Shown: piece by piece, positions 1 to 42,034 of the stretch
Layout: the number at the start of each line of letters is the position of its first letter
Numbering within the stretch: the first letter of the stretch is position 1
Assembly (NCBI GenBank): GCA_024762485.1
Contig: JANTHH010000001.1
Coordinates: forward strand, 1-48,966
Origin: Chromatiales bacterium
GTDB taxonomy: Bacteria; Pseudomonadota; Gammaproteobacteria; Chromatiales; Chromatiaceae
DNA length: 48,966 bases
Reading direction: 5' to 3'
Notes under the pieces: generated by a model
What the model was told of the DNA's origin: nothing
Database searches by the model: none
Seen by the model: only the letters and a program-made list of their open reading frames with translations
Position numbers and translations under genes: made by a program

Positions 1-186
1 GAACTGGGCCTGCCCACGGTTGCCATCGGCGGCATAAGCCCCGAGAATGGCCGCGCCCTGATCGACGCCGGTGCCGATATGCTGGCGGTCATCCGCGGCC
101 TGTTTGCCCAGCCGGACATCCATGCCGCGGCCCAGGCCTACGCCGCCCTGTTTGCCGAAGAAGACCACGAGGAACCCAAGCCATGA
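1..186 (+). CDS. thiE: Thiamine-phosphate synthase, C-terminal fragment (5' end outside the window)
   Basis: Frame 1 is open from base 1 to the TGA at 184-186. The translation ...[31 protein letters not shown]... resembles the ThiE C-terminus. Its stop overlaps the hemL ATG (ATGA), and thiE-hemL synteny is common in Gammaproteobacteria. Confidence 0.7.
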
Positions 187-1466
187 CCCGCTCCCACGAC
201 CTGTTCGAAAAAGCCCGGCGCCACATACCCGGCGGCGTGAATTCCCCGGTGCGGGCCTTCAAGGGCGTGGGTGGCGACCCGGTATTCATCGACCACGCCG
301 AGGGGGCCTACCTGTTCGACAGTGATGGCCAGCTGTACATCGACTATGTGGGATCCTGGGGGCCGATGATCCTCGGTCACACCCACCCCGAGGTGATCGC
401 CGCGGTAAAGGCCGCCGCCGACAAGGGCCTGTCCTTCGGCGCCCCCACCGAGGTGGAAATCCGCATGGCCGACCGGGTGTGCGACATCATGCCCGGCATG
501 GACATGGTACGCATGGTCTCATCAGGCACCGAGGCCACCATGAGCGCCATCCGCCTGGCGCGCGGCTATACCGGCCGCGACAAGATCGTCAAGTTCGAGG
601 GCTGCTACCACGGCCACGCCGACTCGCTGCTGGTGAAGGCCGGTTCCGGCATGCTGACCCTCGGCGAGCCGTCCTCGCCCGGCGTGCCCGCGTCGCTGGC
701 CGAGCATACCCTCACCCTGAACTACAATGACGCCGAGCAGGTGAAGGAGACCTTCGCCAGGCTCGGCGAACAGATCGCCTGCATCATCGTCGAGCCGGTG
801 GCCGGCAACATGAACTGCATCCCGCCCGTGCCCGGCTTCCTCGAGACCCTGCGCGCACAGTGCGACGAGCACGGCGCGGTGCTGATCTTCGACGAGGTGA
901 TGACCGGCTTCCGGGTCTCGCTCACCGGCGCCCAGGGCCACTATGGCATCCAGCCGGACCTGACCACCCTGGGCAAGGTCATCGGCGGCGGCATGCCGGT
1001 GGGTGCCTTCGGCGGCAAGGCCGAGATCATGCAGAAGATCGCCCCGCTCGGCCCCGTCTACCAGGCCGGCACCCTGTCCGGCAATCCGGTGGCCATGGCC
1101 GCGGGCCTGAAGACCCTGGAACTGATCTCCGCCCCCGGCTTCTACGCAGACCTGTCCAGCAAGGTCGACAGGCTGGTCGCTGGCGTCATGCAGGCCGCCG
1201 CCGATGCCGGCGTCCCCTTGGCGGAAAACCACGTCGGCGGCATGTTCGGCTTCTTCTTCACCGGGGCTGGACCAGTCACCGACTTCGCCGGTGCCACCGC
1301 CTGCGACCAGGAACAGTTCAGACACTTTTTCCACGGCATGCTGGACCGTGGCGTGTACCTGGCGCCTTCCGCCTTCGAGGCCGGCTTCGTCTCCGCGGCC
1401 CACAGCGGCAAGGACCTCGACGCCACCATCACCGCCGCCAGCGAGGTCTTCGCCGATCTAGGCTGA
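183..1466 (+). CDS. hemL: Glutamate-1-semialdehyde 2,1-aminomutase
   Basis: 427-aa ORF with the typical HemL N-terminus ([25 protein letters not shown]) and class-III aminotransferase body ([28 protein letters not shown]). Confidence 0.97.
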
Positions 1467-3863
1467 TGTCTCCGGCGGCGCATCAAAGGCATACTCCTCC
1501 GCCCCGAGGGGCGGCTGTACGAAATAGCCCTGCACGAGGTCCACGCCACAGCGATACAGCTCGCTCAGGACCTCTGCCGTCTCCACGTAGCCGGCGACGA
1601 CCCGCGGCCCGGCCTTCTGGATGCGCGCCACCACCTCGCCCACATATTCGACCTGTGCCGCATCCTGCGCCAAGGCACGGGTCAGCGCCTGTGGCAGCTT
1701 GACCAGGGCCGGCCGCAGGGTGTGAATGATCTGGCTTCCCCGCTTGCTGGGGATCACGCCCTCCACCATCAACTGACAGCCCAGCGCGGTGAGTGGGCGA
1801 AGGCCTTCGGCCATCGCCTCCAACGGGACATCCTGTCCCGGTCTGTCGAAGGAGAGACCGATCAGGCTGGCCGGCAGGCCGTGCCTGTTCAACGCGGCAA
1901 CGAGCCAATCAGGGAATGCGGGATCCAGCAGACTCTGCTGCGAAATCTTCATGAACAGCTGGCCCTGCCATCCCTTGCCGACATGGGGTGCAGCCCACGC
2001 CAGCACGCCCTCGATGACATGCTGATCGAGGGTCTCGGCCAGGCCGGCGTAGGGCATGAGGCGCATGAAATCCGATGGCGGAGCACCCTCGCCGGGGACA
2101 TCCGCATCGCACAGGCGACTGCGCACTTCGATGCAGTCATTGGCCCCGCTGACCAGATCGACCATGGGCTGCATCAGCAGACGCAGACGCCGCCGCGTCT
2201 CGTCGAGGTCGGCCTTCAGTTGCGCCGCCCGGTTTTTATTCGTGGCCACCCACAGCCTGCGCGCGGCCTCCAGACCCTGGGCCACCACCCGCCCGCCACC
2301 GGCCTTCTGTGCCTTGCGGCAGGCCAGGCCGGCGCGCCGGATCTGTTCCACCACCGAAAGCTGAGGCTCGCACATCACCAGACCACCTGAATTGCCCGGC
2401 CAGTGATGATCTACCTTGCAGATATCCTGTGCCAGCAGGCGTGCCTGCCCGAACCCGAGGTGGCGCATCACCATGGCGACACCGTGGGCAAAGCGCAGCG
2501 GGTGGGCATCCGGATATCGCCTGGCCAGGTTCGACATCAGATGCTCAAGTGCCGATTCCAGGGCACTGAGATCCTCGCTGCTGGCAGGGATATCCGGTTC
2601 CAGGTAGAGCAGTGCGCCACCCTCTTCGGCCGTCGCCACCTCGAGCAGCTTAAGCAGGTTTTCGTTCGCCAGCAGGTCCATGTGATGAAAGACACCCGCA
2701 GCGGCCTCCCGGCGTGCCCGCGCACGCTGCAGGTGCAGACTGACGGCATCCACCAGCAGGGCCGGGGAGATCGGCTTCTGCAGGAAGTCATCGCCCCCGG
2801 ACTTCAATGCCGCAAACTGGCGCGCCGGGCTCTGCTCACGGGAGAGAAAGAGGACGGGGACATCGTCCCAGGCCGGGAACTGCCGGATCAATGCGGTCAG
2901 CTCCTGGCCATCCACCTCCGGCATGTAGAGATCCATGAGGATCAGGTCCGGCCGGTGACGCTGCAGCGACTGTTCGATGGCCTCCGGCTTCAGCAGCCCC
3001 TCGACGTCGAAACCGGCCTGCCTGAGCACCCCCTGCAGATAGGCCGACTGGTCCGCATCATCCTCAACCACCAGGATCCGGGCGCCGCCGGTCACCGGAT
3101 CGAGCAACAGCAGGAGACGCTCCAGCAGCAGGTGCATGTCCACGGGCTTGGTGAGGTAGGCATCACCGCCAGCGCGGATCGCCCGCAGACGACTCTGCAT
3201 GTCCCGCCGGGCGGAGAGGAAGATCACCGGCAAGGGCAGGCGATTGGCCCGGCGCATGGCGGCAATCGCATCGATGCCGCCAAACTCGCCCTCCGGCAGC
3301 ATGACGTCCATGATCACCGCTGCCGGATTCTCTGCCTCCACCGCCGCAGGCAGCAACGCTGCCGAATCCATCACCCGGACCCGGTAACCCGCCAACTTCA
3401 GTTGCGCTGTCAGGTAGTCGGCCATGTCGGCATCGTCATCTACCAGGTACAGCAGATGACCTCTCTGCTCCCCCGGCGCCGCTGGCCGGTTGGTGGCAGC
3501 ACCCACTGTCGTGGAAGGCTCGTGCAGCGGGTGGGTGACCGCGTCCTCCAGGCGGCCGAAGAGGATCCCCAGCCTGCCGACGATCTCCGGGTCGATCCCG
3601 CCGGACACCGGCATGAGCTCTGCCAGCGCCTGTTGCAATTGATCGGCAGCCGCACTGATCTCCAGGAAGCGGAAGCTGCCGCTGGCACCCACCAGACTGT
3701 GCAGGTGCCGCATCAATGCATCGAGGTCCCCGCTCTCGGCAACGCCTTCCGCCACCTGCCGCCAGCAACGGCGGATCTCATCGAGCCGTTGCGGCAGCCC
3801 GTCGATGAATCGCTGACGTACCGCCGCCAGCTTGCCGTTCCCGGGAATTCCCTGTTCCTGCAT
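1458..3863 (-). CDS. Multidomain signalling protein: Hpt - REC - REC - degenerate GGDEF-like - degenerate EAL-like
   Basis: 801 aa. The N-terminal Hpt has [10 protein letters not shown]. Two receivers carry intact Asp/Lys pockets (VIMDVMLP...YLTKP and LILMDLYMP...FLQKP). The GGDEF-shaped region has RFAHGVAMV where RxGGDEF is expected. The EAL-shaped C-terminus (QPMV..IEVRSRL...VAGYVET...QGYF) has the DDFGTG position reading VEGVIP. An RBS (GGAAGGA) lies 6 nt upstream of the ATG at 3863. Confidence 0.85.
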
Positions 3864-3878
3864 CTCGTCCTTCCTGTC

Positions 3879-5408
3879 CTAGCCCAGTTCACTCAGGGTC
3901 TTGAGCAACACAGCGGGATCGATGGGCTTCGCCAGATAGGCATCGACGCCGACCGCAGCCGCCTGCGCCTGCTCGGCCTGCCCCGCCGCCGCAGACAGTA
4001 TGATCACCGGCCCCTCGTACCCCTCATCTCGGGCCGCCTGCACGACCTGCGGTCCCATCATGTCGGGCAGATGCAGATCCATGAGCAGCAGGTCCGGTTT
4101 CGAGGCGGTCAGGGCCGCCAGCGCCATCCCGCCATCCGCTGCAAAGGCGAGGTCGTAACCACTGTCTTCGAGATAAGCCCCGAGCAGTGCCCGGATATCG
4201 GGGTCATCCTCGACGATCAGCAGATGCCGCCTGCCGGTCGTCCGGGCCCGTGTGACCGGTATCCGATGGGACTCGGGGGCATCGATGTCGAAGACGAAGC
4301 GGCTGCCCTTGCCCGGTGTGCTCTCCAGCTGCATCCGCCCCCCCATGCGTTCAACCAGTGCCAGGGTGATGGCGAGACCCAGCCCGGCGCCATGCCTGCG
4401 AATGGCAGGCTGCCCGGCCTGTCTGAAAGGCTCGAAGATACGTCGTTGCTCCGCCACCGGGATCCCGCTGCCGGTATCGCTGACCGCGACGTTGAGCCGG
4501 GCGTCCTGCCAATCGAGTGTCACCCGGATCTCGCCCTGTTGCGTGAACTTGAATGCGTTGCCGGTGAGATTGACCAGGATCTGCCGCAGGCGCATGCCAT
4601 CGAGCAGCAGGCAGGCCGGCAGTCGGGGGCTGACCTCGACGGTGAAGCCGATACCCGATTGCCGGGCAGTCCGCTCGAACATCTGGCGAATGACCCCGGC
4701 GATCTCACGCACGTCGGTCTCTGTGGGATTCAGCTGGAGTTCATCGTTCTCCAGCTTCGCCTGGTCGAGCAGATTATCAACCAGGCTCAGCAGGTGGCGT
4801 GCCGCGCCTTCCATGGCGTCGAGATAGGCCGGCTTCATCTCGCCCTGATGGCGAAGATCGAGATATCCCAGGATGCTGGTGAGCGGCGTGCGGAATTCGT
4901 GGGACATGTTGCCGATGAACAGGCTCTTCAGTTGGCCGGCCTCCTCCAGCCTGCGATGACTCTCCTGCAGACGCACCTGGCTCTGTTCCAGTTCGGCCAG
5001 CAGTTTTTCCCGCTGCCGGTGCAGCAGCGCCAATTCATTGGCCGCCTGTTGCCGCTCCCGCCGCTGGGCCTGTTCATCCGAGGCATCGAGCAGCACGATG
5101 CCGAGTCCTGCAGACAGCGGCACCAGGTGGACATGGGCCGTGTGCGCCACCCCCGGACGGGTCTCCATGCTGAGGAACTCCAGCACCAGCGGCTCGACGA
5201 GTCCTGCAGCCGTGCCACTGAGCCAGGGCAGGACATTGTCGAGCCGTTCCCCCTCCACGAGGTCCGCCAGGCCGTAAAAGTCCAGGTCGCCGGAGGCGCC
5301 GGTGAGCCGCTCTTGCGCATCGGCCACCAGGCACAACGGGTGCACGCGGTGAAACAACTGGCGGTCCAGGTAGTGCTGCAGTTCCTGCGGCAGGCGGTGC
5401 TCTTTCAT
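3879..5408 (-). CDS. Soluble hybrid sensor histidine kinase (unassigned N-terminal domain - coiled coil - HisKA - HATPase_c - REC)
   Basis: I chose the ATG at 5406-5408 (MKEHRL...) rather than the 618-aa ORF-track start, because it overlaps the stop of the upstream GTPase gene as ATGA. H-box SHEFRTPL, N-box NLTGNAFKFT, G1 DTGSGI, G2 GAGLGLAI. The C-terminal receiver has LLLMDLHLP...YLAKP. No hydrophobic TM segment is present. Confidence 0.9.
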   Translation of the reverse strand: MKEHRLPQELQHYLDRQLFHRVHPLCLVADAQERLTGASGDLDFYGLADLVEGERLDNVLPWLSGTAAGLVEPLVLEFLSMETRPGVAHTAHVHLVPLSAGLGIVLLDASDEQAQRRERQQAANELALLHRQREKLLAELEQSQVRLQESHRRLEEAGQLKSLFIGNMSHEFRTPLTSILGYLDLRHQGEMKPAYLDAMEGAARHLLSLVDNLLDQAKLENDELQLNPTETDVREIAGVIRQMFERTARQSGIGFTVEVSPRLPACLLLDGMRLRQILVNLTGNAFKFTQQGEIRVTLDWQDARLNVAVSDTGSGIPVAEQRRIFEPFRQAGQPAIRRHGAGLGLAITLALVERMGGRMQLESTPGKGSRFVFDIDAPESHRIPVTRARTTGRRHLLIVEDDPDIRALLGAYLEDSGYDLAFAADGGMALAALTASKPDLLLMDLHLPDMMGPQVVQAARDEGYEGPVIILSAAAGQAEQAQAAAVGVDAYLAKPIDPAVLLKTLSELG

Positions 5409-5905
5409 CGTGCAGCAATCGCGTTCGCCAGCTGCTGAAATACCGCGCCGACGCCCTCGCCTGTCTTGGCGCTGCAACATTCCACGGGCCAGCCCGCAGC
5501 GATCCGTTGCGAGATATCGTCCGGCGTCACCTCCCACGCCGCCTTCAGGTCGGCCTTGTTGACTGCCGCCACAAAGGGGGTGTCGCCGAGCATCCCGCTG
5601 ACCTGTTCCTGCAGCCTGCAGGCGGTCTCCAGGGTGTCCCGACGGGTACCGTCGATGACCAGCAGGTAGCCCGCAGCGCCCCGTAGATAGGCGCTGCCCG
5701 TCGCATTCAGCACATCGGTCCCTGCCAGGTCCCACAACACCAGCTTCATCGCCATGCCCCCCTCCAGTTCCACCTGCCGTGTGTCGATCTTGACGCCGAC
5801 GGTGGTGAGATATCTGTCGGAGAAGGTGCTATGCACGTAACGCGCCACCATGCTGGTCTTGCCCACCGAAAAATCACCGACCATGCAGATCTTCGCCGCC
5901 TGCAT
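5405..5905 (-). CDS. Ras/Rap-like small GTPase (166 aa)
   Basis: Starts at ATG 5903-5905 (MQAAKICMVGDFSVGKT), 1 nt after the stop of the upstream gene. G1 GDFSVGKT, switch-I TTVGV, G3 WDLAGT, G4 NKAD and G5 SAK occur in canonical order and spacing. The longer ORF-track N-terminus overlaps the upstream gene and has a low-complexity R/P/C composition. Confidence 0.85.
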   Translation of the reverse strand: MQAAKICMVGDFSVGKTSMVARYVHSTFSDRYLTTVGVKIDTRQVELEGGMAMKLVLWDLAGTDVLNATGSAYLRGAAGYLLVIDGTRRDTLETACRLQEQVSGMLGDTPFVAAVNKADLKAAWEVTPDDISQRIAAGWPVECCSAKTGEGVGAVFQQLANAIAAR

Positions 5906-5906
5906 G

Positions 5907-7880
5907 TCAGCCCGACCCGCCCTGTGTGTCGCCCTCCGGCGAGAGGAAACGGATATGCACATCCGCCCGCCGGCTGGCCAGTTCGGGCACGCCACGGCCC
6001 CGCTTCGGCACCGCCGTTTCAATGAGGAACAGTGATGCCGGCAGCCCCTCGCCAACCAGCAGGTCAACCAGCCGCCGGGCCCGTGCCGCGGCGAGCTGGC
6101 GGTTGTACTGGGGCGTGCCAACAGCATCGGTACGGCCTGTGACCACCACCTTGAAGGGCCGCTGCAGCCGCTCCGCCAAGTGCTGGATCTCGCGCAGGCT
6201 GTCGGCCAGCGACGACATGCCCGCCAGCTGGCCGGGATCGGGATCAATGCCATTGGGGAAGCCGATACTCACCTTGTCGACCTCGGCCACCAGGGTGTCG
6301 AGCCGGCGGGATTCACGGACCACCAGCGCCTTGTCGTCGAGCCCGGCAAAGCCGGGCAACTGCTCCAGCGGAAGGATCGACAGGCGCTGCTTCCAGTCCA
6401 GCGGGGCGTCACCCTCGAGCATGATCCAGCCATCCTTCACGCGCAGAGTGACCCCTTCCGGAGGATCGATCATGGCCCTCGCCTGCTGCAGCAAATAGCT
6501 GTCGCGGTCGGTCAGCCGACTGTCATCGAAGGCGTTGATGCCGGGGATCGCCGGTGCCAGCAGCCGGGCACGCTCGATCCAGCGGGCATCCGGGACGCCT
6601 TCGGCCAGCAGTACGCCATCCGCGCCCAGTCTCAGATTGACCGTGGGCGGCGGCGCGAGGATACGCTGTGCCCGGCGCAGGGCGAACGGGGGCGAGAGAT
6701 CCTGGTAGGGCCGCCAGTTGAACGTCACCGCATCCGCCGCTAGGCCACTGCCAGCTACCAGCTCGTCGAGCGGTGGCGCGAGGGGGTCCCGCAGGCCCTC
6801 GATATGCAGCCGGCCATCCGTCCGGTCGACACGTGTCACCACCACGCCGGGACGGGACTCGAGCTGTTGCAACAGTGCCGCCTCCCGTCCCCGGCGTTCA
6901 CTGGCGGCACGCTGCTCGTCCCAGGCCTGGTAACCGAACCATGACAGCAGCAGCACGACAAACGCCAGCAGCCACCACAGAAAGGCGCGGCGCGGTCTCT
7001 TGTCCGTCTCACGCTCCTCCGACACCAGGCAGCGGCGCAGCTCCGGCTGCACCGCCAGCAGCGAATCGCTGTCGCCGTCGAAGGCCTTTATCGCAGCAGC
7101 AAATTTCTCGTGCACGTCCTCGAGGATGCCCATCAACCGCTGCCGCAGGTCGGGTGGCGGCATACCTCGGATGACGCAGGCCATCAGGGCGTAGGGTCCG
7201 TGCAACAGCAAGACGGTGTGCTCGCCCACGTCCACCGTATCCAGGGTGCCCTCGCCGCCCGCGACGAAGGCATCCTTGACGAAGTCCTCGATGGCAGTGA
7301 GCATCGCGGAGACCGCGTCCGCGTCCCGGTCCAGGGCCGTGGGGTCGGCCACATGCTGCATCAGCAGACCACTGCCGGGCTGGATCAGGAATACCTGTTC
7401 CACCCGGTAGATGAGGGTGTGGCGCAACACCACGGCAGAGAACGGCACGCCGGCACGCATGGCCTCGATGCGCCAGGCGATGCCTCGGGGTGAAAGGCTG
7501 TGCTCCAGTGCCTTGTTGAGTGCATCGACGATGCCGCGAAGTGATTCGGCGATGGCGCGCCGGATGGCGGGACCCATGACCGGGAACAGGGCATCGGCCA
7601 GGGAATGGGGGTCGGCCTGGACGGAGCGATGCAGACATTCGGCCACTGGCGCCTCGAGGGCGCTGATCAGGGCGTCGCCCTGCCGTAGTTGCAGCTGTAC
7701 CGCATCCGGCAGCACCTGCGATACGTCCTGGGCTCGCAGGGGCAGATCATCGATACGCTGACGCAGCTGCTCGAGGTCCTTCTGCTCGGGCTCGAACAAA
7801 AGGCGCTTCAGGGTATCGAGTGCGTCCGCGTCCGTGGTGGACGGCCGATCATCCCGGGGTTTCGGTCCCTGCTGATTCAC
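5907..7880 (-). CDS. Bitopic membrane protein: cytoplasmic Roadblock/LC7-like region - 1 TM - periplasmic BON-like repeats - OmpA_C-type peptidoglycan-binding domain
   Basis: 657 aa with a GTG start. It has a single hydrophobic helix (AFLWWLLAFVVLLLSWFGYQAW, aa ~299-320). The C-terminus (VVVTGRTDAVGTPQYNRQLAAARARRLVDLLV...RRADVHI) matches the OmpA/MotB peptidoglycan-binding signature (TD..G....N..LS..RA). The cytoplasmic aa ~155-260 has a Roadblock-like pattern (details in the findings). Confidence 0.8.
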   Translation of the reverse strand: MNQQGPKPRDDRPSTTDADALDTLKRLLFEPEQKDLEQLRQRIDDLPLRAQDVSQVLPDAVQLQLRQGDALISALEAPVAECLHRSVQADPHSLADALFPVMGPAIRRAIAESLRGIVDALNKALEHSLSPRGIAWRIEAMRAGVPFSAVVLRHTLIYRVEQVFLIQPGSGLLMQHVADPTALDRDADAVSAMLTAIEDFVKDAFVAGGEGTLDTVDVGEHTVLLLHGPYALMACVIRGMPPPDLRQRLMGILEDVHEKFAAAIKAFDGDSDSLLAVQPELRRCLVSEERETDKRPRRAFLWWLLAFVVLLLSWFGYQAWDEQRAASERRGREAALLQQLESRPGVVVTRVDRTDGRLHIEGLRDPLAPPLDELVAGSGLAADAVTFNWRPYQDLSPPFALRRAQRILAPPPTVNLRLGADGVLLAEGVPDARWIERARLLAPAIPGINAFDDSRLTDRDSYLLQQARAMIDPPEGVTLRVKDGWIMLEGDAPLDWKQRLSILPLEQLPGFAGLDDKALVVRESRRLDTLVAEVDKVSIGFPNGIDPDPGQLAGMSSLADSLREIQHLAERLQRPFKVVVTGRTDAVGTPQYNRQLAAARARRLVDLLVGEGLPASLFLIETAVPKRGRGVPELASRRADVHIRFLSPEGDTQGGSG

Positions 7881-7910
7881 CTGGATTCAATCCCTGTAGC
7901 ACAGGCCATT

Positions 7911-8489
7911 TCAGGATTTGTCCATGCCTTCCATGTCGAATGAGCCCTTGAGCCGCAGTGCCACCTCGCCAAGCATGTCGGCAAGACTCTCGCGGCTCAG
8001 TTTGTCGTCATGCAGTTGCTGCGTTTCCTTATCGAGGGAATCGAGCAGTTGCTCGCCCTGCTTGCGCATCGCGGCCTGCAGCACATCGACCTGGTCGTGC
8101 AGTTCCATGCGCAGGTCCGTGAGCTGTTTGCCGGCATCCTTGTGCACCTCGTCAAGGCGTTTCGCCAGTGAATCGTCCGCCTGCTTGAGCACATCCGAGA
8201 GGCTGCCCAGCGCCTGGGCCGCGGCCTTTTTTTCTGTCTCCAGTGCATTGCCGAGCCGTTCGACCTGGGTGTTCAGCAGATCTTCCAGCCGCTTGAAGCG
8301 TGCATCGAGATCATCCTGCAGCTGTACCCTGTCCCGCTCGAGACGCTCCTCCAGCCGCTGGAAGCGACGATCGAAGTCCCGCATCTGTCCACCGAACAGA
8401 ATTTCTCGAATCTGATCAACATTGTCAGACGTCGCTTCGGTGGCTGCCTCTACCCCCGCGACCTTCTTGGATGCCTTGTTGCCTGCCAT
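7911..8489 (-). CDS. Acidic coiled-coil protein, function unknown (first gene of the operon)
   Basis: 192 aa with an ATG preceded by AAGGAG. Long heptad-like E/R/L/Q/D-rich sequence with no TM or signal peptide. It lies 30 nt upstream of the next gene on the same strand. Confidence 0.6.
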   Translation of the reverse strand: MAGNKASKKVAGVEAATEATSDNVDQIREILFGGQMRDFDRRFQRLEERLERDRVQLQDDLDARFKRLEDLLNTQVERLGNALETEKKAAAQALGSLSDVLKQADDSLAKRLDEVHKDAGKQLTDLRMELHDQVDVLQAAMRKQGEQLLDSLDKETQQLHDDKLSRESLADMLGEVALRLKGSFDMEGMDKS

Positions 8490-8671: not shown

Positions 8672-8700
8672 TAAAAAAGACCCCGCCAGATGGCAGGGTC
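8672..8700 (-). terminator. Rho-independent terminator after the lipoprotein gene
   Basis: Minus-strand RNA reads GACCCUGCC-AUCU-GGCGGGGUC: a 9-bp stem including one G.U pair, followed by UUUUUUAU. It lies 32 nt downstream of the stop at 8732. Confidence 0.72.
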
Positions 8701-8731
8701 TCCTATTACGTACCGCAGTGATGTCAGGCGA

Positions 8732-9814
8732 TCAACCCGCCGACATGACACCCAGTTTTTTCAGCGTCTCAAGGGTCAGCTGACCGACAGCCAGCCCGTT
8801 CTTGCGCTGATAGGCCTTGACGGCAGCCATGGTCTGGCGACCAACGATGCCATCGATCGGACCGGGGTCGAAACCGTCATCCTTCAATGCCACCTGTAGT
8901 CGCTTCACCACGTCCTTGGTGGTATTGGTTTCACAGAGGATTGGGCGCCACTCAAGCTCGCCCTCGCTGACCAGCTGGCGTTCCTTAATGGTGCGATACT
9001 CCGCCGGGATATCAAATTGCTGCTCGCTGGCATCCTTGACCATCTTGCGCACCCTGATGGTCTTGTATTCCGCCGGAACCACCTCGGTAGCCGTCTTGGC
9101 AGACTCGACCACCACGCGCTTGCGCACGACCTTGTACTCGGCCGGAATGGCCACCTTGCGGACACCGGCCGGCTTGACCAGTACACGCTTGGCAACGTTC
9201 TTGTACTCGGCCGGGACCTCCACCAGACACATGATCTCGCCGGTGGCATCATCGATTTTCTCGATCGGACCGCGACCCTTCTTCCAGGTGGTATAGGCAT
9301 CGCGCACGAGCACCTTCTCGTACTCGGTCTCATACACCGCGGGCTCCTCGATCAGCTTGCTGGAGGCCTCCTTGACCAGCACGCGCTCTTCCACCCAGTC
9401 GTATTTCGCCGGGATGACCTTGAGCACTTCGGTGGGCTCCTTCACCAGCACCTTCTCTTCTACCCATTCATAGACGGCGGGCACCGTCTGGATACGCTTG
9501 CCGGCCTCCTTCACCAGGACGGTTTTCTCGATATCCTTATATTGTGCAGGCGCGAATACCCGGGCATAACACTCGCCGGGCTGTGCCTTCGGCGGCAACA
9601 GGTTGTTCCCCGCATCACCCTCACCCGCAGACTGTGCATCACGGGTGGACATCTCACCCCTGAGGCCTTGCAGCGATTGCTTCAGACTTGCGTTCTCCCG
9701 CTCCGTTTCCTTCAAGCGCATTTCCAGATCATCACGTGACTGCATACCGCTACAGCCCGACAGACCAATGATCGCGGCGCTCGCCAACAATCCAAATACT
9801 ATTCTTTTGTTCAT
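8732..9814 (-). CDS. Lipoprotein with eight 23-aa tandem repeats and a C-terminal PG_binding_1-type peptidoglycan-binding domain
   Basis: Starts at ATG 9812-9814 (MNKRIVFGLLASAAIIGLSGC) with lipobox LSGC and a GGAGAG RBS. The repeats follow [VI]PA.Y..V...VLVK.A. The C-terminus (VVKRLQVALKDDGFDPGPIDGIVGRQTMAAVKAYQRKNGL) is a typical PG_binding_1 motif. Confidence 0.85.
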   Translation of the reverse strand: MNKRIVFGLLASAAIIGLSGCSGMQSRDDLEMRLKETERENASLKQSLQGLRGEMSTRDAQSAGEGDAGNNLLPPKAQPGECYARVFAPAQYKDIEKTVLVKEAGKRIQTVPAVYEWVEEKVLVKEPTEVLKVIPAKYDWVEERVLVKEASSKLIEEPAVYETEYEKVLVRDAYTTWKKGRGPIEKIDDATGEIMCLVEVPAEYKNVAKRVLVKPAGVRKVAIPAEYKVVRKRVVVESAKTATEVVPAEYKTIRVRKMVKDASEQQFDIPAEYRTIKERQLVSEGELEWRPILCETNTTKDVVKRLQVALKDDGFDPGPIDGIVGRQTMAAVKAYQRKNGLAVGQLTLETLKKLGVMSAG

Positions 9815-10033
9815 CGGATCCTCTCCAAATTTTATGAACGTCTTTCCGAACCCGTAACTCAGCCACCCTGTCTGCTCAGCCCGACAGCCCCTGCTCGAAT
9901 CACCCTCGCCATCTGTCACGACCAATCAATCAGACGCTTGGTATTTCACTTTGTTTTCAACAACTAAGCGCATTACCCGGAACATCTGACCGACGACTGA
10001 CCGCACCTGAAAACCGTGAGTCGACCAACTATC

Positions 10034-10199: not shown

Positions 10200-10526
10200 T
10201 CAGGTGGGGGAGCCGGTGTCCTCGGGAGGGATGATCTCTATCGATGCGAGATGTTGATCGAGCCGCTGCAGCTGTTGATCGATCACCGCATCGTCCGACG
10301 CCTGCGCGGCCTGCTCCAGGGCAAGACCGATGGCTGACAGGTGATCAAAACCATAGCTGCCCGCGACACCCTTGAGGTTGTGAGCCAGCTGCCACAGGCG
10401 TCGATGGTCCCGGGCCTTCGCGGCAGCACGAATCACGTCGAGTTCCCGGCGGCGGTTCTCAAGGAAGGCCGGCACCAAGTCAGCGATGCCGGCCGCGATC
10501 CTTATCCGGTGAGGCTGCCCGCTCAC
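10200..10526 (-). CDS. Stand-alone histidine phosphotransfer (Hpt) protein
   Basis: 108 aa with the Hpt signature AHNLKGVAGSYGF. Its GTG start overlaps the stop of the upstream activator gene (GTGA). Confidence 0.8.
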   Translation of the reverse strand: MSGQPHRIRIAAGIADLVPAFLENRRRELDVIRAAAKARDHRRLWQLAHNLKGVAGSYGFDHLSAIGLALEQAAQASDDAVIDQQLQRLDQHLASIEIIPPEDTGSPT

Positions 10527-11893
10527 TGGCCGGCCGACTCGGCCTCGGCCCGGAAGCTCGCCGCATCCAGACCATGGCGCCCCAGCAGCTTGTAGAATTC
10601 GGTGCGATTACGCCCGGCCATGCGCGCGGCAGTACTGACATTGCCATTGGTGGTGCGCAACAGACCGACCAGGTAGCGGTGTTCGAAGGCATGCTTCGCC
10701 TCGTCGAGCGACTGCACCTCACCCACCTGGTCCGCCAGGGCCTCGACGACCAGCTGGTCGGGGATCACCTCGGAGGTGCTCAGCACCACGCAGCGTTCAA
10801 CCAGGTTGCGCAGCTGCCGCACGTTGCCCGGCAGGGCGGCCTGCAGCAGGTACTCCTGCCCCTTGGGGGAGAAGCGCCGTCGCGCCGAGGGCTTTGTCCC
10901 CGCCAGGGACGCGAGGAAATGCTCGATCAGCAAGGGGATGTCTTCCCGGCGATCACGCAGCGGGGGTATCAGCAGCGGCACCACGTTCAGCCGGTAGTAC
11001 AGGTCTTCGCGGAATTCATGGCTGCACACCATGGACAACAGGTCATGGTGGGTGGCGGAGATGATCCGCACATCGACAGGCACCGCCTTCAGCGCACCCA
11101 CCGGGCGCACCTGGAAATCCTGCAGCACCCTCAGCAGCTTGGCCTGCAGGTTGGCGGGCATGTCGCCGATCTCATCCAGGAACAGGGTGCCCTTGTCCGC
11201 CGCCTGAAACAGGCCGACATGGCGGCTGTTTGCGCCAGTGAACGCACCCTTCTCATGGCCGAACAACTCGGACTCAAGCAGGTGTTCCGGCATGGCACTG
11301 CAGTTGATGCTGACAAAAGGTCCCTGGCGACGCGGGCTGGCCCTGTGGATCGCCTTGGCCAGCTCCTCCTTGCCGGTACCGGTCTCTCCGCTCAGCAGCA
11401 GCGTGGTATCGCCCATCGCCACCAGACGGGCCCGCTCCACCAGCTCCACCATGGCCGCGGAGCGGTAGACCAGCCCCTCACCGAAGGCCTGGACGGCCGC
11501 ACCCTGCTTGCCTCCGGCACGCTGCAGTGCGCGCTCCACCGCAGCGACCAGGTCCGGCTCCCGAATGGGCTTGGTGATGAAATCCGATACCCCCAGGTGT
11601 GCCGCCTGGATGGCATCACGCACCTCTGCCTGGCCGCTGATCAGGATCACCGGCAACACCGCATCCAGCTGGTGGATGGCCGACAACAGGCGCATGCCAT
11701 CGAGTTCTTCCATCATCAGGTCGCTGACCACCAGATCCGGGCGGCGCCGCTCCATCACCGCCAGTGCCTGACGCCCGCCAGCAGCGGCCGTCACCTGCAT
11801 GCCGGCGAGTTGCAGCCAGCGTTGCGTCAGCGCCAGATGATCGGGGTCATCGTCGACGACAAGGATGTGGGCGCCTTTGGCATGGTCGGACAT
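10523..11893 (-). CDS. Sigma-54-dependent response regulator (REC - AAA+ - Fis-type HTH), NtrC/LuxO class
   Basis: Receiver ILVVDDDPD...VVSDLMM...ITKP. Walker A GETGTGKE, GAFTGA loop, Walker B LFLDEIGDM. The C-terminal HTH is NVSTAARMAGRNRTEFYKLL. I preferred the ATG at 11893 (AGGAAA RBS) over the TTG at 11917. Confidence 0.93.
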   Translation of the reverse strand: MSDHAKGAHILVVDDDPDHLALTQRWLQLAGMQVTAAAGGRQALAVMERRRPDLVVSDLMMEELDGMRLLSAIHQLDAVLPVILISGQAEVRDAIQAAHLGVSDFITKPIREPDLVAAVERALQRAGGKQGAAVQAFGEGLVYRSAAMVELVERARLVAMGDTTLLLSGETGTGKEELAKAIHRASPRRQGPFVSINCSAMPEHLLESELFGHEKGAFTGANSRHVGLFQAADKGTLFLDEIGDMPANLQAKLLRVLQDFQVRPVGALKAVPVDVRIISATHHDLLSMVCSHEFREDLYYRLNVVPLLIPPLRDRREDIPLLIEHFLASLAGTKPSARRRFSPKGQEYLLQAALPGNVRQLRNLVERCVVLSTSEVIPDQLVVEALADQVGEVQSLDEAKHAFEHRYLVGLLRTTNGNVSTAARMAGRNRTEFYKLLGRHGLDAASFRAEAESAGQ

Positions 11894-11920
11894 CGTGGGG
11901 TTTCCTGGCCTGTTCAAGGA

Positions 11921-17223: not shown

Positions 17224-19515
17224 TCATGCGGCACCGTGGATCACATAGCGGTTCCTGCCCGATTGCTTGGCCTGATACATGGCCCGGTCGGCCACCGCCA
17301 GCAATCCTTCCGGGTCGTCGGCATCCTGCGGATAGATCGCGATGCCCAGGCTGCCGCTCACCTGCTCCTGCTGACCATCTTCCGTTACCGTGACGGTCAC
17401 CTGTCTCAGCAGCCGGCCGGCCAGTTCCTCCACCTCGGCACGGTCATCCACCTCATTGAGGATAATGGCGAACTCGTCACCCCCGAGCCGGGCCACCGTG
17501 TCGTCCTCGCGGACCGACTGGCTGAGCCGTGCGGCGATATCGACCAGCAGTTCGTCGCCCCGCTGATGGCCGAAACGGTCATTCACCGCCTTGAAACCAT
17601 CAAGATCGAGATACAGCAGCGCCAACAGCTTGCCGCTGCGACGTGCCCGCGCCATGCCCGCTCGCAGGCGATCCTGGAAGAGGATGCGGTTGGCCACGCC
17701 GGTCAGCACGTCGAAATGGGCGAGGTTCTCCAACCGGGCCTGGTTTTCCTTCAACGCCGTGATATCCGCATAGATGCCCACATAACGACAAGTATCCTGG
17801 TCGTCGTCACAGACGCGGGTAACGGACATCAGCCGTGGCAGAATCTCGCCGGACTTGGTGCGCAGCCAGACCTCACTCTGCCAGCGCCCCTCTGACATCA
17901 GGTTGTCCCACATGCGGCGATAGTATTCCTGGTCGTGCAGACCCGATTTGAGCAGCGCCGGGGTCTTACCCCGCAGCTCGCCCCACTGGTAGCCGGTCAT
18001 CTCGCAGAAGGCATCGTTGGCGTCGACGATGTTGCTGTCCTGATCAGTGATCAGGATCGGCTGCGAGACCTGGTCGATGATGGCCTGATCCAGTTGCAGT
18101 TCCCGTTCCCGCTGCTTGCGTTCGGTGATGTCCTGTACCGTGCCGAGCAGGTGCCTGCCGTTCCCGCCGTCATCATTGACGAGACGGGCAAAGCCATGCA
18201 CGTAGAGATCGCCGCCGTCGGCCCGCACGATGCGGTATTCGAGCTCACCCCTGCCCCCATCACGGATCACCTGGCGCAAGGCCTGGATGAAACGGCGCCG
18301 ATCCGCGGGATGGACATGGCGCAGGAACAAGCGGGGACCCGGCTGCACGCTGCGGGGCTCGAGGTCGAGCAACCGGAACATCTCATCCGACCAGGTCTGC
18401 CGACCACTCGACAGGTCCCAGTCCCAGCTGCCCAGATGGGTGAGCGACTGGGCCATCTGCAGGGCCTCGTGTTCGCGCTGCAGTGCCGTCTCCATCTGCC
18501 GCTGCTGGCTGATGTCACGCAGGCTCACCAGGGCCACCCGGCCGCTGTCCTGCAACGAGTAGCTCAGGCTGATACTGACTGGCACTTCACTGCCATCGGC
18601 ACAGCGCACCCGGAACCCGCGCATACTGGTCATCGGCCGCCCCTGTCCCGAGGCGAAGTGCTGTTCGCGCATGCCGACATGACCTGCGCGCAGGTCCTCG
18701 GGCAGCAGATCCTCCGCCGTCATCCCCACCAGTTGCGCACGCCTATAGCCGAGCAGGTGCTCGGCCTGCAGGTTGACACGGACGATACGGCCGGACTCGT
18801 CGACGATCAGCAGGGCATCGGGCATGGCCTCGAGCAGTTCCGACAGGTAGCGCTGGCTGAGCTCGGATCGCTCCCGGGCCCGGGACAGTTCACGCCGGTC
18901 CCATACCAGCAGCATGGCCAGCAGCAGGAAGGGGATGAACAGCAAGGCGGAATATCGCGTCTTCACCACCACGTCATGCAGGGCAGCGTCGACCTCGCGC
19001 TGTGCCACACCGGCCTGGGCCTCGATCCGTTCCTGCAGCCGGGCGATGGCCTGCAGGGCCGGGTCGTCATCGACCTTCACCCGACGATCGATCTGCCGGG
19101 GCGACATGCCCTGGGCGACCAGCTGTCGCGCCAGGTCGAGCTTGCCGGCGTACTCATCGACAACGGCTTCGAGGGTGGCCAGGGCATCGAGCGCCATGGG
19201 GTCGTCCGACAGCTGCCGGAACCGGGCCATGGCCAGGCGTGTGGCCGCGAGATGGCCGGCAAGCTTGGGTGGCAGCGATTCATCCTGCCGCAGGACGTAG
19301 TTCTTGAAGTCATGGATGAAACCACCGTAGCCGAAATTGCGCACGATCTGGTGCAGGGTCTCATCCATCTGTACCGCGCGACCATGGTAGCGCTGCCACA
19401 GTTGCGAGGTGTCTTCGACCTGCCGCGCCAGCGAAACGCCGAGCGCGAACAACCCCAGCACGCTGAGCGTGACCAGCAGATAGATCAGAAAGGGCAGTTT
19501 CTTCAGGCGTTGCAT
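17224..19515 (-). CDS. Membrane sensor diguanylate cyclase (TM - periplasmic helical sensor - TM - 3x PAS - GGDEF)
   Basis: Intact RLGGDEFAI active site. Three PAS/PAC-like blocks and two TM segments flank a ~170-aa periplasmic region. The ATG at 19515 lies one codon inside the TTG used by the ORF track. Confidence 0.88.
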   Translation of the reverse strand: MQRLKKLPFLIYLLVTLSVLGLFALGVSLARQVEDTSQLWQRYHGRAVQMDETLHQIVRNFGYGGFIHDFKNYVLRQDESLPPKLAGHLAATRLAMARFRQLSDDPMALDALATLEAVVDEYAGKLDLARQLVAQGMSPRQIDRRVKVDDDPALQAIARLQERIEAQAGVAQREVDAALHDVVVKTRYSALLFIPFLLLAMLLVWDRRELSRARERSELSQRYLSELLEAMPDALLIVDESGRIVRVNLQAEHLLGYRRAQLVGMTAEDLLPEDLRAGHVGMREQHFASGQGRPMTSMRGFRVRCADGSEVPVSISLSYSLQDSGRVALVSLRDISQQRQMETALQREHEALQMAQSLTHLGSWDWDLSSGRQTWSDEMFRLLDLEPRSVQPGPRLFLRHVHPADRRRFIQALRQVIRDGGRGELEYRIVRADGGDLYVHGFARLVNDDGGNGRHLLGTVQDITERKQRERELQLDQAIIDQVSQPILITDQDSNIVDANDAFCEMTGYQWGELRGKTPALLKSGLHDQEYYRRMWDNLMSEGRWQSEVWLRTKSGEILPRLMSVTRVCDDDQDTCRYVGIYADITALKENQARLENLAHFDVLTGVANRILFQDRLRAGMARARRSGKLLALLYLDLDGFKAVNDRFGHQRGDELLVDIAARLSQSVREDDTVARLGGDEFAIILNEVDDRAEVEELAGRLLRQVTVTVTEDGQQEQVSGSLGIAIYPQDADDPEGLLAVADRAMYQAKQSGRNRYVIHGAA

Positions 19516-19696
19516 CAAGGAAAGACCTTCGGCCGATACCGGCTGTTGTCACGTCTGCGCGTGATTCGTCATGGCATCTTCCCTGAACCTCTTCTGACTA
19601 TATGGAAAAATCCCCGCAAAAGGGCTCGGGAAGTTGCGCTGGATCAATACCCTCGCATTGTCCGGCGCACATCCGGAAGGCCGATCCCTATCCCTT

Positions 19697-35938: not shown

Positions 35939-36747
35939 CCCGTTGCGGCCTTGTCCACGGTGGTGGTGGCGCGCACCTCGTGCAGATCCTCGCCCTTGCG
36001 GATCTGCAACACCAGGCGCCACAAGCCGGGCTGTGGCATCACGGTGACCACCTCGTAGCGCCCGGGGGCCGCCTGCTGCATGGTGAAGGCAAAATCGAAC
36101 TCGCTGTTGGAGGTGCGCAGGAAGCGTCCACTCACTTCGGCATCGGTCACCGGCTGGCCGGCGGCATCCCGCACCTCAACGATGAATCGCGCGGGCTTGC
36201 CGACAACCGGTCGATCCTGCCAGCCCTTCTGGACCTGCCAGCCGCGTGCCCGCTGTGCCTCGACCTGTTTCAGGTAGTCGTTGTACTGTGATTCCTTCTT
36301 CTGGTAGTCGTGGGAGACCGTACCCGGGAAGCGGGAGTCGGCCACCTCACCGGAGCGCGGTGCTGGCAGCAGTTCGGCGAAGATGCCGGTAATGCCCTGC
36401 TCGGAGACCACCAGGAAGACCACATCCACCGCTACCACGAAGGTAAAAAAGCCGATCAGCAGCGTTGGCCCCCAGTGCCAGCCGCCGCCTTTTCCCTGCT
36501 GGCCCTGGCTGCCGATGATACCGAGGATATAGGCCACGATCAGGTACAGAGCGAGGTGGATGGCGAAGATATCGGCGCCCGGCCAGGTGAGTATCCCCCA
36601 GGGCACATAGATCAGCAGTACCAGCATGGCAACGGCCGCCGCGGCGGTACGGGCATCGAGACGCAGCAGCCTGCGCAGCACCACGAACAGCACCGTCTCG
36701 GCAAGGAGGCCGAGGCCGATGGTGAGCAGGATCATGCCGGCACTCAT
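35935..36747 (-). CDS. ccoH: CcoH/FixH-family protein with an N-terminal ~95-aa, 3-TM extension
   Basis: The C-terminal ~170 aa (WHWGPTLLIGFFTFVVAVDVVF...YNDYLKQVEAQRARGW...PGRYEV...GLWRLVL) fits the FixH pattern. The ATG overlaps the ccoG stop (ATGA). Confidence 0.72.
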   Translation of the reverse strand: MSAGMILLTIGLGLLAETVLFVVLRRLLRLDARTAAAAVAMLVLLIYVPWGILTWPGADIFAIHLALYLIVAYILGIIGSQGQQGKGGGWHWGPTLLIGFFTFVVAVDVVFLVVSEQGITGIFAELLPAPRSGEVADSRFPGTVSHDYQKKESQYNDYLKQVEAQRARGWQVQKGWQDRPVVGKPARFIVEVRDAAGQPVTDAEVSGRFLRTSNSEFDFAFTMQQAAPGRYEVVTVMPQPGLWRLVLQIRKGEDLHEVRATTTVDKAATG

Positions 36748-38171: not shown

Positions 38172-38200
38172 CGTTGCTGCTGATTCCTGTTGTCAGAAGA

Positions 38201-38229
38201 CAGAAAAGGCCGCAAGCGGCCTTTTCTGT
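38201..38229 (-). terminator. Hairpin between ccoP and ccoG (terminator/attenuator)
   Basis: CAGAAAAGGCCG-cttg-CGGCCTTTTCTG forms a 12-bp stem on the minus strand. The U-run lies partly inside the stem. Confidence 0.5.
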
Positions 38230-38271
38230 CAGTCGACGGTGACGCTCCGGCCGTGACCGGATGTCAGCCCG

Positions 38272-39192: not shown

Positions 39193-39388
39193 TGTGTTTG
39201 CCCTTTTCGCTTTCTTTTGATTCCCGCTCGTCGTCCTGGAATGGGATGTCCTTGTAGGATTCAAAACGCGCCTTGCGCTTTTTGCCGGTGAAGACATACA
39301 GGACGATGGCCACGAAGGTGACGAAGAAGATCACCAACGCCAGAGGCTTGGTGTTCTCCATCTTCGAAAACCATTCGATCAGGTCCAT
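39185..39388 (-). CDS. ccoQ: cbb3-type cytochrome c oxidase subunit IV CcoQ
   Basis: Small single-TM protein (MDLIEWFSKMENTKPLALVIFFVTFVAIVLYVF) between ccoO and ccoP. Its 3' end overlaps ccoP by 8 nt. Confidence 0.8.
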   Translation of the reverse strand: MDLIEWFSKMENTKPLALVIFFVTFVAIVLYVFTGKKRKARFESYKDIPFQDDERESKESEKGKHNG

Positions 39389-39433
39389 CACGTCGGAAAT
39401 CCTCTGTTCACTTGGAATTCAACCGTTATCCGA

Positions 39434-40174: not shown

Positions 40175-40185
40175 CTGGGACCCCG

Positions 40186-41649: not shown

Positions 41650-42034
41650 CAAACCCCTGTCTCTGTATCGGACATGCAAAAGGGGTCGCGCCGGACCCTG
41701 CACGTGCCGAGGAATGGGAACACACGTTACCGCCCTATTACAGGACCCTGCGAGCTGCACAGGGCCGCAACGCCGTCATGCGCCGAAAATTCAAATCTGG
41801 ACCCATAAAGGGTAGTCGAAACTCTCGATCGCAGGCCGTCTGTAACGGCTGGTAAGCAGCGGAAGTTTAGCCGGGGAGGGGAGTATTAGTCAATTATGAA
41901 ATGGTTATCCGGAAACCCGATGACCATGCCCGGCGTGGCCTGGGGAAACGGATTCCTGGCGGGCCGGCGCAAGGCAAAACCAGCCATAGACAGCCTTGTG
42001 AAGGGGCGCCAGGTCCGCCCGATCCAGGTTCCAG

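Follow-up and report, generated by a model that had tools for sequence, protein, structure and literature searches.

The window analysed here, a stretch of 48,966 nucleotides (nt) from a Chromatiales bacterium (contig JANTHH010000001.1), carries on its minus strand five closely packed genes, which code for a coiled-coil protein, a membrane protein with a C-terminal OmpA-like domain (hereafter P2), a small Ras-like GTPase, a hybrid histidine kinase and a fifth protein composed of Hpt, REC and degenerate EAL domains. Analyses of the deduced sequences indicated that the core formed by the first four genes is the Group 1 Rup (Rup1) module, every architectural feature of which it shows. The cluster is biologically real and belongs to a computationally described system, not to a new kind. 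We consider it fairly probable that the cluster as a whole is a Rup1 signalling system which has been extended in this lineage by a phosphorelay, a reading in which every functional step is one that we infer.

Group 1 Rup genes were reported to adjoin three conserved genes, coding for a cytoplasmic coiled-coil protein, for a protein made of a domain of unknown function, a transmembrane (TM) segment and a C-terminal OmpA domain, and for an output module (histidine kinase or GGDEF/EAL protein) whose N-terminal region contains an invariant Gln (Wuichet and Søgaard-Andersen, Genome Biol Evol 2014/2015, PMC4316618). Table S2 of that paper contains 27 loci of the type 'DUFY>DUFX:OmpA>Rup>' from taxa which include Nostoc, Anabaena, Alteromonas, Glaciecola, Marinomonas and Pseudoalteromonas as well as Sorangium, Mesorhizobium, Nitrospira, Chloroflexus and flavobacteria (PMC4316618). 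The coiled-coil protein of the window corresponds to 'DUFY' and P2 to 'DUFX:OmpA', and GTPase homologues of about 50% identity from lineages of Table S2 (Nostocales, Gammaproteobacteria and Nitrospirae) show the same neighbourhood. The initial annotation had presented the cluster as an undescribed system; this was not borne out, since the four-gene core had already been published as Group 1 Rup (PMC4316618). A search of the literature on Rup and Rup1, of the works citing the 2014 paper and of the locus tags of six of the listed members revealed no experimental or functional study of the Rup1 system. For this exact module a bioinformatic description only was found, so the annotation, which had asked whether it had been functionally characterised, was not contradicted on that point. 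In the published trees Rup1 is the bacterial group that clusters with Rab/Ras/Rho/Ran (PMC4316618; bioRxiv 10.1101/2024.02.28.582541), and later papers use the name purely for a phylogenetic reference group, together with Rab/Ras/Rho/Ran and Asgard RasL.

The ORF (open reading frame) call placed the five genes on the minus strand where they had been annotated, in the order coiled-coil protein (7911-8489; 192 amino acids, aa), P2 (5907-7880; 657 aa, GTG start), small GTPase (5405-5905; 166 aa), hybrid histidine kinase (3879-5408; 509 aa) and fifth protein (1458-3863; 801 aa). The four junctions were likewise read in the sequence as they had been described. In minus-strand letters, the coiled-coil gene and the P2 gene are joined by TGA, 30 nt and GTG, P2 and the GTPase gene by TGA-C-ATG with a 1-nt gap, the GTPase and kinase genes by GCA-CGA-TGA overlapping ATG-AAA, which is an ATGA overlap, and the kinase and fifth genes by TAG, 15 nt including the AGGAAGGA ribosome-binding site, and ATG.

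Conservation of this arrangement was assessed at the best 80 of at least 587 confirmed GTPase loci in species-representative genomes, with hidden Markov models (HMMs) built in this analysis; upstream counts refer to the 66 loci with at least 3 kb of upstream sequence and downstream counts to the 75 loci with enough flank. The GTPase homologues fell into 4,599 clusters at E<=1e-10, some of which may be other Ras-like proteins, and the closest homologue, 72% identical, lies on a 1.3-kb fragment. The best 80 loci belong to Thiotrichales/Beggiatoaceae, other Gammaproteobacteria, the Betaproteobacteria Variovorax and Limnobacter, Acidobacteriota, Nostocales (Cyanobacteria), Nitrospirales (Nitrospirota), Deinococcota, Victivallales, Verrucomicrobiales (Verrucomicrobiota) and Desulfovibrionaceae.

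The N-terminal domain of P2 was found in 56 of the 66 loci and a homologue of the coiled-coil protein, directly upstream of the P2 gene, in 54, and the order coiled-coil protein, P2, GTPase was kept on the same strand nearly always. Downstream, the N-terminal domain of the output protein (hereafter N-domain) was of the type found in the window in 49 of the 75 loci, and most of the remaining loci carried a second subtype with the same motif (LQxARE..L). The gap between the P2 and GTPase genes has a median of about 12 nt, with 4-nt overlaps of the ATGA type in 11 loci. In many bacterial phyla the four-gene core thus keeps its order, with genes closely spaced or overlapping, and, since the same order recurs in dozens of species-level genomes of different phyla, the arrangement is far beyond chance.

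About 10 of the 66 loci, mostly from Beggiatoaceae/Thiotrichaceae, have only the pair formed by the GTPase and a kinase with the N-domain, without coiled-coil protein and P2. At such pair-only loci (L004, L005, L006, L010, L011, L014, L060 and L069, with L081 as a further example) no coiled-coil or OmpA gene occurs within several kb, and L010 and L014 have an extra ORF just upstream of the GTPase gene that codes for a stand-alone PAS-like domain of 166 aa. Since that pair is kept alone in about 10 loci, GTPase and N-domain form the irreducible couple of the system. A single metagenomic sequence of 771 aa (P0336) has the N-domain (LLDATxE...QQKTNELALL) fused to a full P2, with 39% identity over 477 aa, and this Rosetta-stone fusion hints that N-domain and P2 are parts of one complex.

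The 166-aa protein matched the Ras family of Pfam (PF00071, 3.7e-27), as well as Roc, and the small_GTP domain of NCBIfam, so that the profile search placed it in the Ras superfamily, as had been proposed. It contains the P-loop GDFSVGKT, the switch-I Thr (T35), G3 as WDLAGT, G4 as NKAD and G5 as SAK, and its closest solved structures are the eukaryotic Rabs Rab14, Rab23, Rab21 and Sec4 (E about 1e-19 to 1e-17). Alignment revealed that T63 stands at the position of the catalytic Gln of Rab/Ras (Ras Gln61), where Rap also has Thr, and that F12 occupies the position of Ras Gly12. Both features are family traits: in the 80 relatives DxxG is followed by Glu (55), Asn (7), Lys (5), Ala (4), Asp (3), Thr (3), Ser (2) or Gln (1), and position 12 of the P-loop is occupied by Phe in 77 of them and by Tyr in 2. 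The G3 residue bore no evident relation to which N-domain subtype the output protein carries, and the nucleotide-binding motifs G1, G3 DxxG, NKxD and SAK are strictly conserved in the family. With Phe or Tyr at position 12 and nearly never a Gln in G3, the Rup1 family is so designed that canonical catalysis by a cis Gln and an Arg finger is ruled out, and the lack of a usable cis catalytic Gln would imply that the catalytic residue is supplied in trans. The absence of the G3 Gln in Group 1 Rup had been noted before by authors who speculated that a Gln is supplied in trans and who likened the system to the actinobacterial conservon (PMC4316618).

P2, the partner encoded directly upstream, is a predicted bitopic protein: its N-terminus would lie in the cytoplasm and its C-terminus, with an OmpA-like domain, in the periplasm, the two being joined by a single TM segment (aa 297-319, 6924-6992 on the minus strand; maximum of 2.0 in a 19-residue Kyte-Doolittle scan). 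The same type of hydropathy scan revealed no TM segment in the GTPase, the kinase, the coiled-coil protein or the fifth protein, and the coiled-coil protein, which is cytoplasmic, gave only weak matches of the coiled-coil type in Pfam. The N-terminal 300 aa of P2 are 38-48% identical across phyla. A model of aa 1-300 built with AlphaFold (AF2) from an alignment of 56 sequences had a mean predicted local distance difference test score (pLDDT) of 79.4; it consists of a helical part (aa 17-155) and an alpha/beta unit made of a helix (147-155), two strands, a helix, three strands and two helices reaching to aa 282, the unit scoring mostly 88-98 and only 58-71 at aa 181-210. The top Foldseek matches of this unit (aa about 147-282, 7035-7442 on the minus strand) in the PDB were all longin/Roadblock proteins, namely the sigma subunits of AP-1/AP-3, Mon1-Ccz1 with Ypt7 and the TRAPP subunits sedlin and Bet5, followed by LAMTOR/Ragulator, MglB and Fuzzy-Inturned (E 2e-4 to 3e-3, probability 1.0, target TM-score up to 0.73). 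The cytoplasmic domain of P2 is therefore predicted to have a longin/Roadblock fold. Pfam, however, matched nothing in this region, Robl_LC7 included, so that the term 'Roadblock-like' of the initial annotation stands on the AF2 model and Foldseek, not on Pfam, and denotes a fold assignment and not a demonstrated homology. The predicted fold would qualify the view put forward in 2014 that MglB-like proteins are not among the predicted partners of Rup proteins (PMC4316618).

The most conserved motif of the P2 family, DALFPVMGPAIRKAI at aa 96-108, with P100 and G103 invariant, lies in the helical N-terminal part, in a stretch of lower model confidence (pLDDT about 61); W136-R137 is invariant as well. 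On the periplasmic side, two tandem repeats (aa about 407-525, 6306-6662 on the minus strand) aligned to each other with an hhalign probability of 96% (E 4.6e-9, 55 columns). A resemblance of these repeats to BON domains was seen by eye and could not be confirmed, Pfam giving no match, and the internal duplication alone is demonstrable. The repeats are followed by the OmpA-like peptidoglycan-binding domain with the motif GRTDAVGTPQYNRQLAAARA (5931-6248 on the minus strand), for which the Pfam OmpA match covers aa 562-618 (1e-06, above the gathering score). The peptidoglycan-binding motif GxTDxxGxxxxNxxLSxxRA is conserved in the P2 family, the consensus of which reads GHtD.tG....N..LS..RA, and is present in the P2 of the window.

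The product of the gene following the GTPase gene (3879-5408, minus strand) is a soluble hybrid histidine kinase, which consists of the N-domain, a signalling helix, HisKA/HATPase_c and REC. The annotation as a kinase devoid of TM segments was upheld by the Pfam matches and the hydropathy scan. The protein has kept an intact H-box (SHEFRTP), intact N and G1 boxes and the REC Asp, but is without an Hpt of its own. The N-domain (aa 1-109, 5082-5408 on the minus strand), which is the 'N-term' of the Group 1 Rup outputs, had no match to PAS in Pfam. A word-indexed protein search with the kinase N-terminus found nothing, and a profile search of the PDB was dominated by the kinase core and was uninformative on the N-domain. 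An exhaustive HMMER search, by contrast to the word-indexed one, yielded 185 cluster representatives that carry the domain, nearly always at the N-terminus, and 68 sequences from it were used to model residues 1-150 with AF2. In the model (pLDDT 96.2) an N-cap helix is followed by a sheet of five strands, connected by short helices, and by an exit helix of 40 residues, and Foldseek aligned it with PAS/LOV sensor domains and their signalling helices, namely the PAS domain of Rv1364c, YF1, the FlrB PAS, YtvA and the BvgS PAS (E 7e-4 to 4e-3), and also VC2136. The N-terminal domain of the kinase is thus predicted to be PAS-like.

The exit helix begins with a D108-A-S/T junction of the PAS type, 93% conserved, and continues as L119-Q120-Q121-x-A-N124-E125-L-x-L128. 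Within it, the patch Q120-Q121-x-A-N124-E125 (5034-5051, minus strand) is conserved in the 68 sequences at 67 (Q121), 62 (Q120), 56 (N124) and 53 (E125) of the 68, and a joint alignment across phyla showed that Q121 is kept in 64 of 69 downstream proteins; the patch includes the 'invariant glutamine' of the 2014 paper (PMC4316618). Assuming an a/d core at positions 119/122/126/129/133/136/140/143/147, the residues Q120, Q121, N124, E125 and L128 take positions b, c, f, g and c, and if this core holds the QQxxNE patch faces the outside of the coiled coil, off its core. A surface that binds a partner, or that acts catalytically in trans, would be expected to carry just such a polar patch, exposed and nearly invariant.

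In the 69 downstream proteins the N-domain precedes HisKA/HATPase_c (45), REC (23), Hpt (8), SpoIIE of the PP2C type (7), HD-GYP (4), sigma54 AAA+ (3), GGDEF (2) and class III cyclase (2) domains. Such a swappable module ahead of many outputs follows the pattern of an input domain, which favours a flow of information from the GTPase to the kinase, and the direction assumed in the initial annotation fits this domain logic. One protein (P0266) has two tandem copies of the PAS-like domain. In the Nostocales loci L030, L043, L046, L054, L072, L073 and L075 the PAS-like domain is a separate ORF of about 130 aa directly after the GTPase gene, followed by a kinase-like ORF of about 375 aa, which is either a real split or an effect of simple ORF calling.

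The fifth protein (1458-3863, minus strand) consists, according to Pfam, of Hpt, REC, REC, a stretch of about 175 aa without match and a degenerate EAL domain. The Hpt His (H55) and both REC Asp residues are present, and the protein is a probable phosphorelay acceptor as far as its domains indicate. Its C-terminal part of about 290 aa aligned best with the GGDEF-EAL structures of FimX (3e-24). Inspection of this alignment by eye revealed that EVR replaces EAL, that the N position reads M-K-I-S and that VEGV replaces DDFG; the metal-binding Asn, Glu and DD of EAL are thereby replaced, and the set of residues of an active phosphodiesterase (the Glu of EAL, metal-binding Asn, Glu of ExxE, DD(FGTG), Lys and the Glu of EGVE) is not complete. 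By its sequence the fifth protein is likely a receptor of cyclic di-GMP (c-di-GMP) and not a phosphodiesterase. Residues 381-560 matched nothing in Pfam or, at E<=10, in the PDB and gave no GGDEF signal (PF00990), and only the last 50 or so of them fall within the FimX alignment. The initial annotation had read the protein as Hpt-REC-REC followed by degenerate GGDEF and EAL domains; the Hpt, the two REC domains and the degenerate EAL were recovered, while the GGDEF part was not.

No Hpt or EAL match resembling the fifth protein was found beside the GTPase in any of the 80 genome loci. The co-conservation that had been expected for all five genes accordingly held for the coiled-coil protein, P2, the GTPase and the output protein and failed for the fifth gene (absent beside the GTPase in 80/80), which is lineage-specific and lies outside the conserved unit. 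The sole case of a similar gene found is on the metagenomic contig L083, where an Hpt-REC-REC gene (32% identity, E 1e-49) follows the closest relative of the kinase; in another relative (L082) Hpt is fused to the kinase instead of being encoded by a separate gene. On L083 (1033-4265) the kinase relative is 46% identical, the gene resembling the fifth one is cut by the contig end, and the kinase gene is preceded by a divergent GTPase-like ORF of 151 aa (29% identity) with no precomputed Pfam match. Elsewhere in the window, a gene on the minus strand (17224-19518) codes for a protein with three PAS domains and a GGDEF domain (1.6e-51), which might supply the degenerate EAL receptor with c-di-GMP locally.

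In the phosphorelay-extended Rup1 system which we favour, P2, probably together with the coiled-coil protein, would report the state of the envelope or peptidoglycan across the membrane, and its longin/Roadblock platform would determine which nucleotide the GTPase carries, acting most probably as a guanine nucleotide exchange factor (GEF) or as a scaffold. Once bound to GTP, the GTPase would dock on the kinase, at the PAS-like domain and the exit helix, and alter autophosphorylation. The QQxxNE surface may provide, in trans, the Gln/Asn that the GTPase lacks for catalysis, much as RapGAP provides its Asn thumb to Rap; should the patch complete the active site in this manner, the effector would double as a GTPase-activating protein (GAP) and time the signal. 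Within the kinase, phosphate would pass from the His to the Asp of the REC domain and from there to the Hpt of the fifth protein, possibly also to the stand-alone Hpt protein encoded upstream, and would then reach the REC domains of the fifth protein, controlling a FimX-like, non-catalytic EAL module that binds c-di-GMP. The sigma54-dependent response regulator, also encoded upstream, may be a second endpoint of the relay.

Several observations weigh against this reading. The absence of coiled-coil protein and P2 from about 10 of the 66 loci means that an envelope input is not obligatory, and the fifth gene is not conserved and is linked to the kinase by adjacency alone. With Phe12 and no Gln61 the GTPase may barely hydrolyse GTP. 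The predicted folds rest on AlphaFold models and on Foldseek E-values of about 1e-4 to 1e-3. Longin/Roadblock proteins may act as GEFs, as GAPs or as inert platforms, and P2 might be any of these, and the conserved Gln of the exit helix could instead pack on the PAS core or on the N-cap helix.

The flow of information might run in reverse, the PAS-like domain of the kinase being mainly a GAP and the true effector of the GTPase being the envelope complex of coiled-coil protein and P2, with two-component signalling as the input and, for example, the remodelling or positioning of a peptidoglycan-anchored structure as the outcome. The conserved Gln/Asn patch would suit a GAP, in line with the proposal made in PMC4316618; the output proteins are less well conserved in sequence than P2 and the coiled-coil protein; and the kinase REC could receive signals. 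Against this, the N-domain always stands N-terminal to varied transmitter or output domains, which is the usual order from sensor to effector, and the loci with the pair of GTPase and N-domain but neither coiled-coil protein nor P2 mean that these two cannot be an obligatory effector; we regard the reverse flow as unlikely. Another view, to which we give a somewhat lower probability, takes the system for a spatial landmark after the manner of MglA/MglB, in which peptidoglycan-tethered P2 would mark a pole or septum and the GTPase would recruit the kinase and the FimX-like protein there, so that what is controlled is where signalling occurs and not how strongly. It is compatible with the phosphorelay-extended Rup1 system. 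In Pseudomonas and Xanthomonas, FimX serves type IV pili as a c-di-GMP receptor at the pole, and the FimX-like fifth protein, together with a Roadblock/longin-like domain and a wall anchor in one protein, speaks for such a landmark. The 49-kb window, however, contains no pilus, flagellar or polarity genes, so that the similarity to FimX gives no contextual clue to the final output; the GTPase, having the G3 Asp, belongs to Rup and not to the MglA family, and the outputs found elsewhere are generic signalling enzymes.

The residues of the GTPase allow also for a pseudo-switch, that is, a protein permanently bound to GTP, or an adaptor working independently of the nucleotide, which bridges P2 to the output and does not go through a regulated GTPase cycle. 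Phe or Tyr at position 12 in 79 of the 80 relatives and a Gln at the catalytic position in just one agree with it; yet G1, G3 DxxG, NKxD and SAK are strictly conserved, the conserved Gln/Asn patch of the partner resembles a trans-acting catalytic residue, and Rap and Rheb, which carry similar substitutions, are true switches. In our judgement a pseudo-switch is decidedly improbable. That the GTPase gene came by chance to lie between unrelated envelope and two-component genes has nothing in its favour beyond the abundance of two-component genes in such genomes and is refuted by the conservation: order, strand and near-zero spacing recur across many phyla and two of the components are naturally fused in P0336, leaving chance adjacency with practically no probability. 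A bolder proposal within the Rup1 framework is that the system is a complete bacterial cascade from a receptor-GEF through a Rab-like GTPase to an effector/GAP, the PAS-like domain being both effector and GAP. Here the wall-tethered longin/Roadblock platform, which has the fold of eukaryotic Rab/Rag GEFs, would load the GTPase, the exit helix would insert the Gln/Asn, and the state of the GTPase would be converted directly into a kinase, phosphatase, c-di-GMP or sigma54 output. We put this forward tentatively and hold it possible but doubtful.

Comparison with known systems places the cluster closest to Group 1 Rup, with which it shares Ras-like G1-G5 motifs including the G3 Asp, the lack of the G3 Gln, the same partners in the same order and the broad taxonomic spread. 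It differs in adding the gene for Hpt-REC-REC and degenerate EAL, and possibly the upstream sigma54 regulator with Hpt; both conserved domains termed 'unknown' in the paper are here predicted to be longin/Roadblock-like (P2) and PAS-like (output), and the outputs are wider, including PP2C, HD-GYP, sigma54 AAA+ and cyclases. The initial annotation had known of no mechanism by which a GTPase acts on a histidine kinase, but the conservon, or AGPS, is an experimentally studied precedent (PMC12236503). The conservon proteins CvnA-D (Komatsu 2006, as described in PMC4316618; PMC12236503) resemble the cluster in being encoded by an operon with a Ras-superfamily GTPase, a Roadblock-fold protein and a histidine kinase and in forming a membrane-associated complex. 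Their GTPase, however, is of the MglA type, their kinase is a membrane sensor with HAMP and an LPxR tail, their Roadblock protein is a small soluble homologue of MglB, a DUF742 protein is present, and the OmpA anchor, the coiled-coil partner and the PAS-like domain with the Gln motif of the window are lacking. Conversely, the kinase of the window is soluble with neither HAMP nor TM segment, Pfam revealed no DUF742 at the locus, and the GTPase is of the Rup type.

The MglA/MglB(/RomR-RomX) system of Myxococcus likewise combines a bacterial Ras-like GTPase with a Roadblock-fold regulator and is tied to response regulators. MglA, however, is without the G3 Asp and has an intrinsic Arg finger, while the GTPase of the window has WDxxG and groups with Rab/Ras, and MglB is a small soluble GAP and not a domain of a wall-anchored membrane protein. 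At the locus G3 reads WDLAG with Asp, no stand-alone Roadblock gene was found, and the best PDB matches of the GTPase were Rabs, not MglA. Eukaryotic Rabs with longin GEFs (Mon1-Ccz1, TRAPP and Fuzzy-Inturned) offer a parallel in that the GTPase is nearest to Rabs and the partner domain matches the fold of GEF subunits. Rap (Thr61) and Rheb (with a bulky residue 12), served by Asn-thumb GAPs, parallel the GTPase of the window in lacking a usable cis catalytic Gln. Both parallels would be analogies, as there is no sequence homology to the Rab GEFs or Rap GAPs and the candidate trans residue lies on a PAS exit helix and not in a RapGAP fold. The fifth protein shares with FimX of Pseudomonas/Xanthomonas a degenerate EAL motif (EVR in the window, EVL in FimX) and the loss of the metal-binding residues, but the N-terminus of FimX consists of REC-like and PAS domains, whereas the protein of the window has Hpt-REC-REC with intact phospho-acceptors and is without a recognisable GGDEF.

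In 2014, 27 Rup1 loci were known; the scan made here gave at least 587 species-level genome matches. For the 'unknown domains' of the literature the predicted folds offer specific hypotheses, an envelope-side longin/Roadblock platform and an output-side PAS-like receiver with the exposed QQxxNE patch. What is new is modest and comprises the folds of these two domains, the geometry of the Gln patch and a broader catalogue of outputs, together with a natural fusion of two components, the possible sigma54 link and a putative relay, peculiar to this lineage, to a FimX-like protein. If the GTPase-effector cascade outlined above were true, the partnership of Rab and longin would predate eukaryotes and would occur in the bacterial group closest to Rab/Ras/Rho/Ran, and a protein ligand, the G protein, would join the inputs of PAS domains. 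Should the G protein be the input of the histidine kinase, bacteria would possess a second, conservon-independent route that couples G-protein switching to two-component and c-di-GMP signalling.

Three further genes on the same strand lie upstream of the coiled-coil gene, beyond a terminator, and were identified with Pfam and NCBIfam. They code for a lipoprotein-like protein with a C-terminal PG_binding_1 domain, the lipobox LSGC and repeated segments of the 'VLVKE' type (8732-9925), a stand-alone Hpt protein of 108 aa (10200-10526) and the sigma54-dependent response regulator (10523-11917). At the locus L084 (3032-4450) a sigma54 regulator 56% identical to that of the window is encoded directly upstream of the coiled-coil, P2, GTPase and kinase genes, the module proteins of which are just 37-48% identical to those of the window, and at 5 of the 80 loci the module either is followed by a sigma54 activator or is fused to one. 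The GTPase-kinase pairs of L060 and L069, which are without P2, have about 2.7 kb downstream a homologue of the PG_binding_1 protein (32-34% identity, E 1e-44 to 1e-47). This thin evidence suggests that the working system in this organism may exceed five genes.

The terminator that ends the upstream transcription unit consists of a 13-pair hairpin followed by a T-run; the scanner located it at 8675-8704 on the minus strand, the annotated position being 8672-8700. Between it and the coiled-coil gene there is a leader of about 185 nt, which matched no Rfam family; a sub-threshold match to the rnk leader proved to be just the terminator. At the other end, hemL (183-1466, plus strand), recognised by TIGR00713 above the cut-off, is convergent with the fifth gene, as annotated, and its end overlaps the stop of that gene by 9 nt (1458-1466); no terminator-like site was detected between the two.

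The remainder of the 49-kb window contains ordinary chromosomal genes, which give no clue to the physiological output, among them MscS, fpg, tex, the PAS-GGDEF protein, ggt, M16 peptidases and an rpoH-like sigma factor. Two respiratory oxidase clusters, usual for an aerobic proteobacterium, lie back to back on the minus strand (33515-48811), one of the cbb3 type with genes for the COX1 subunit, FixO and FixP and for FixG, FixH and a P-type ATPase (fixGHI), and one of the aa3 type with COX1, COX3, COX15/CtaA and a UbiA-family heme O synthase.

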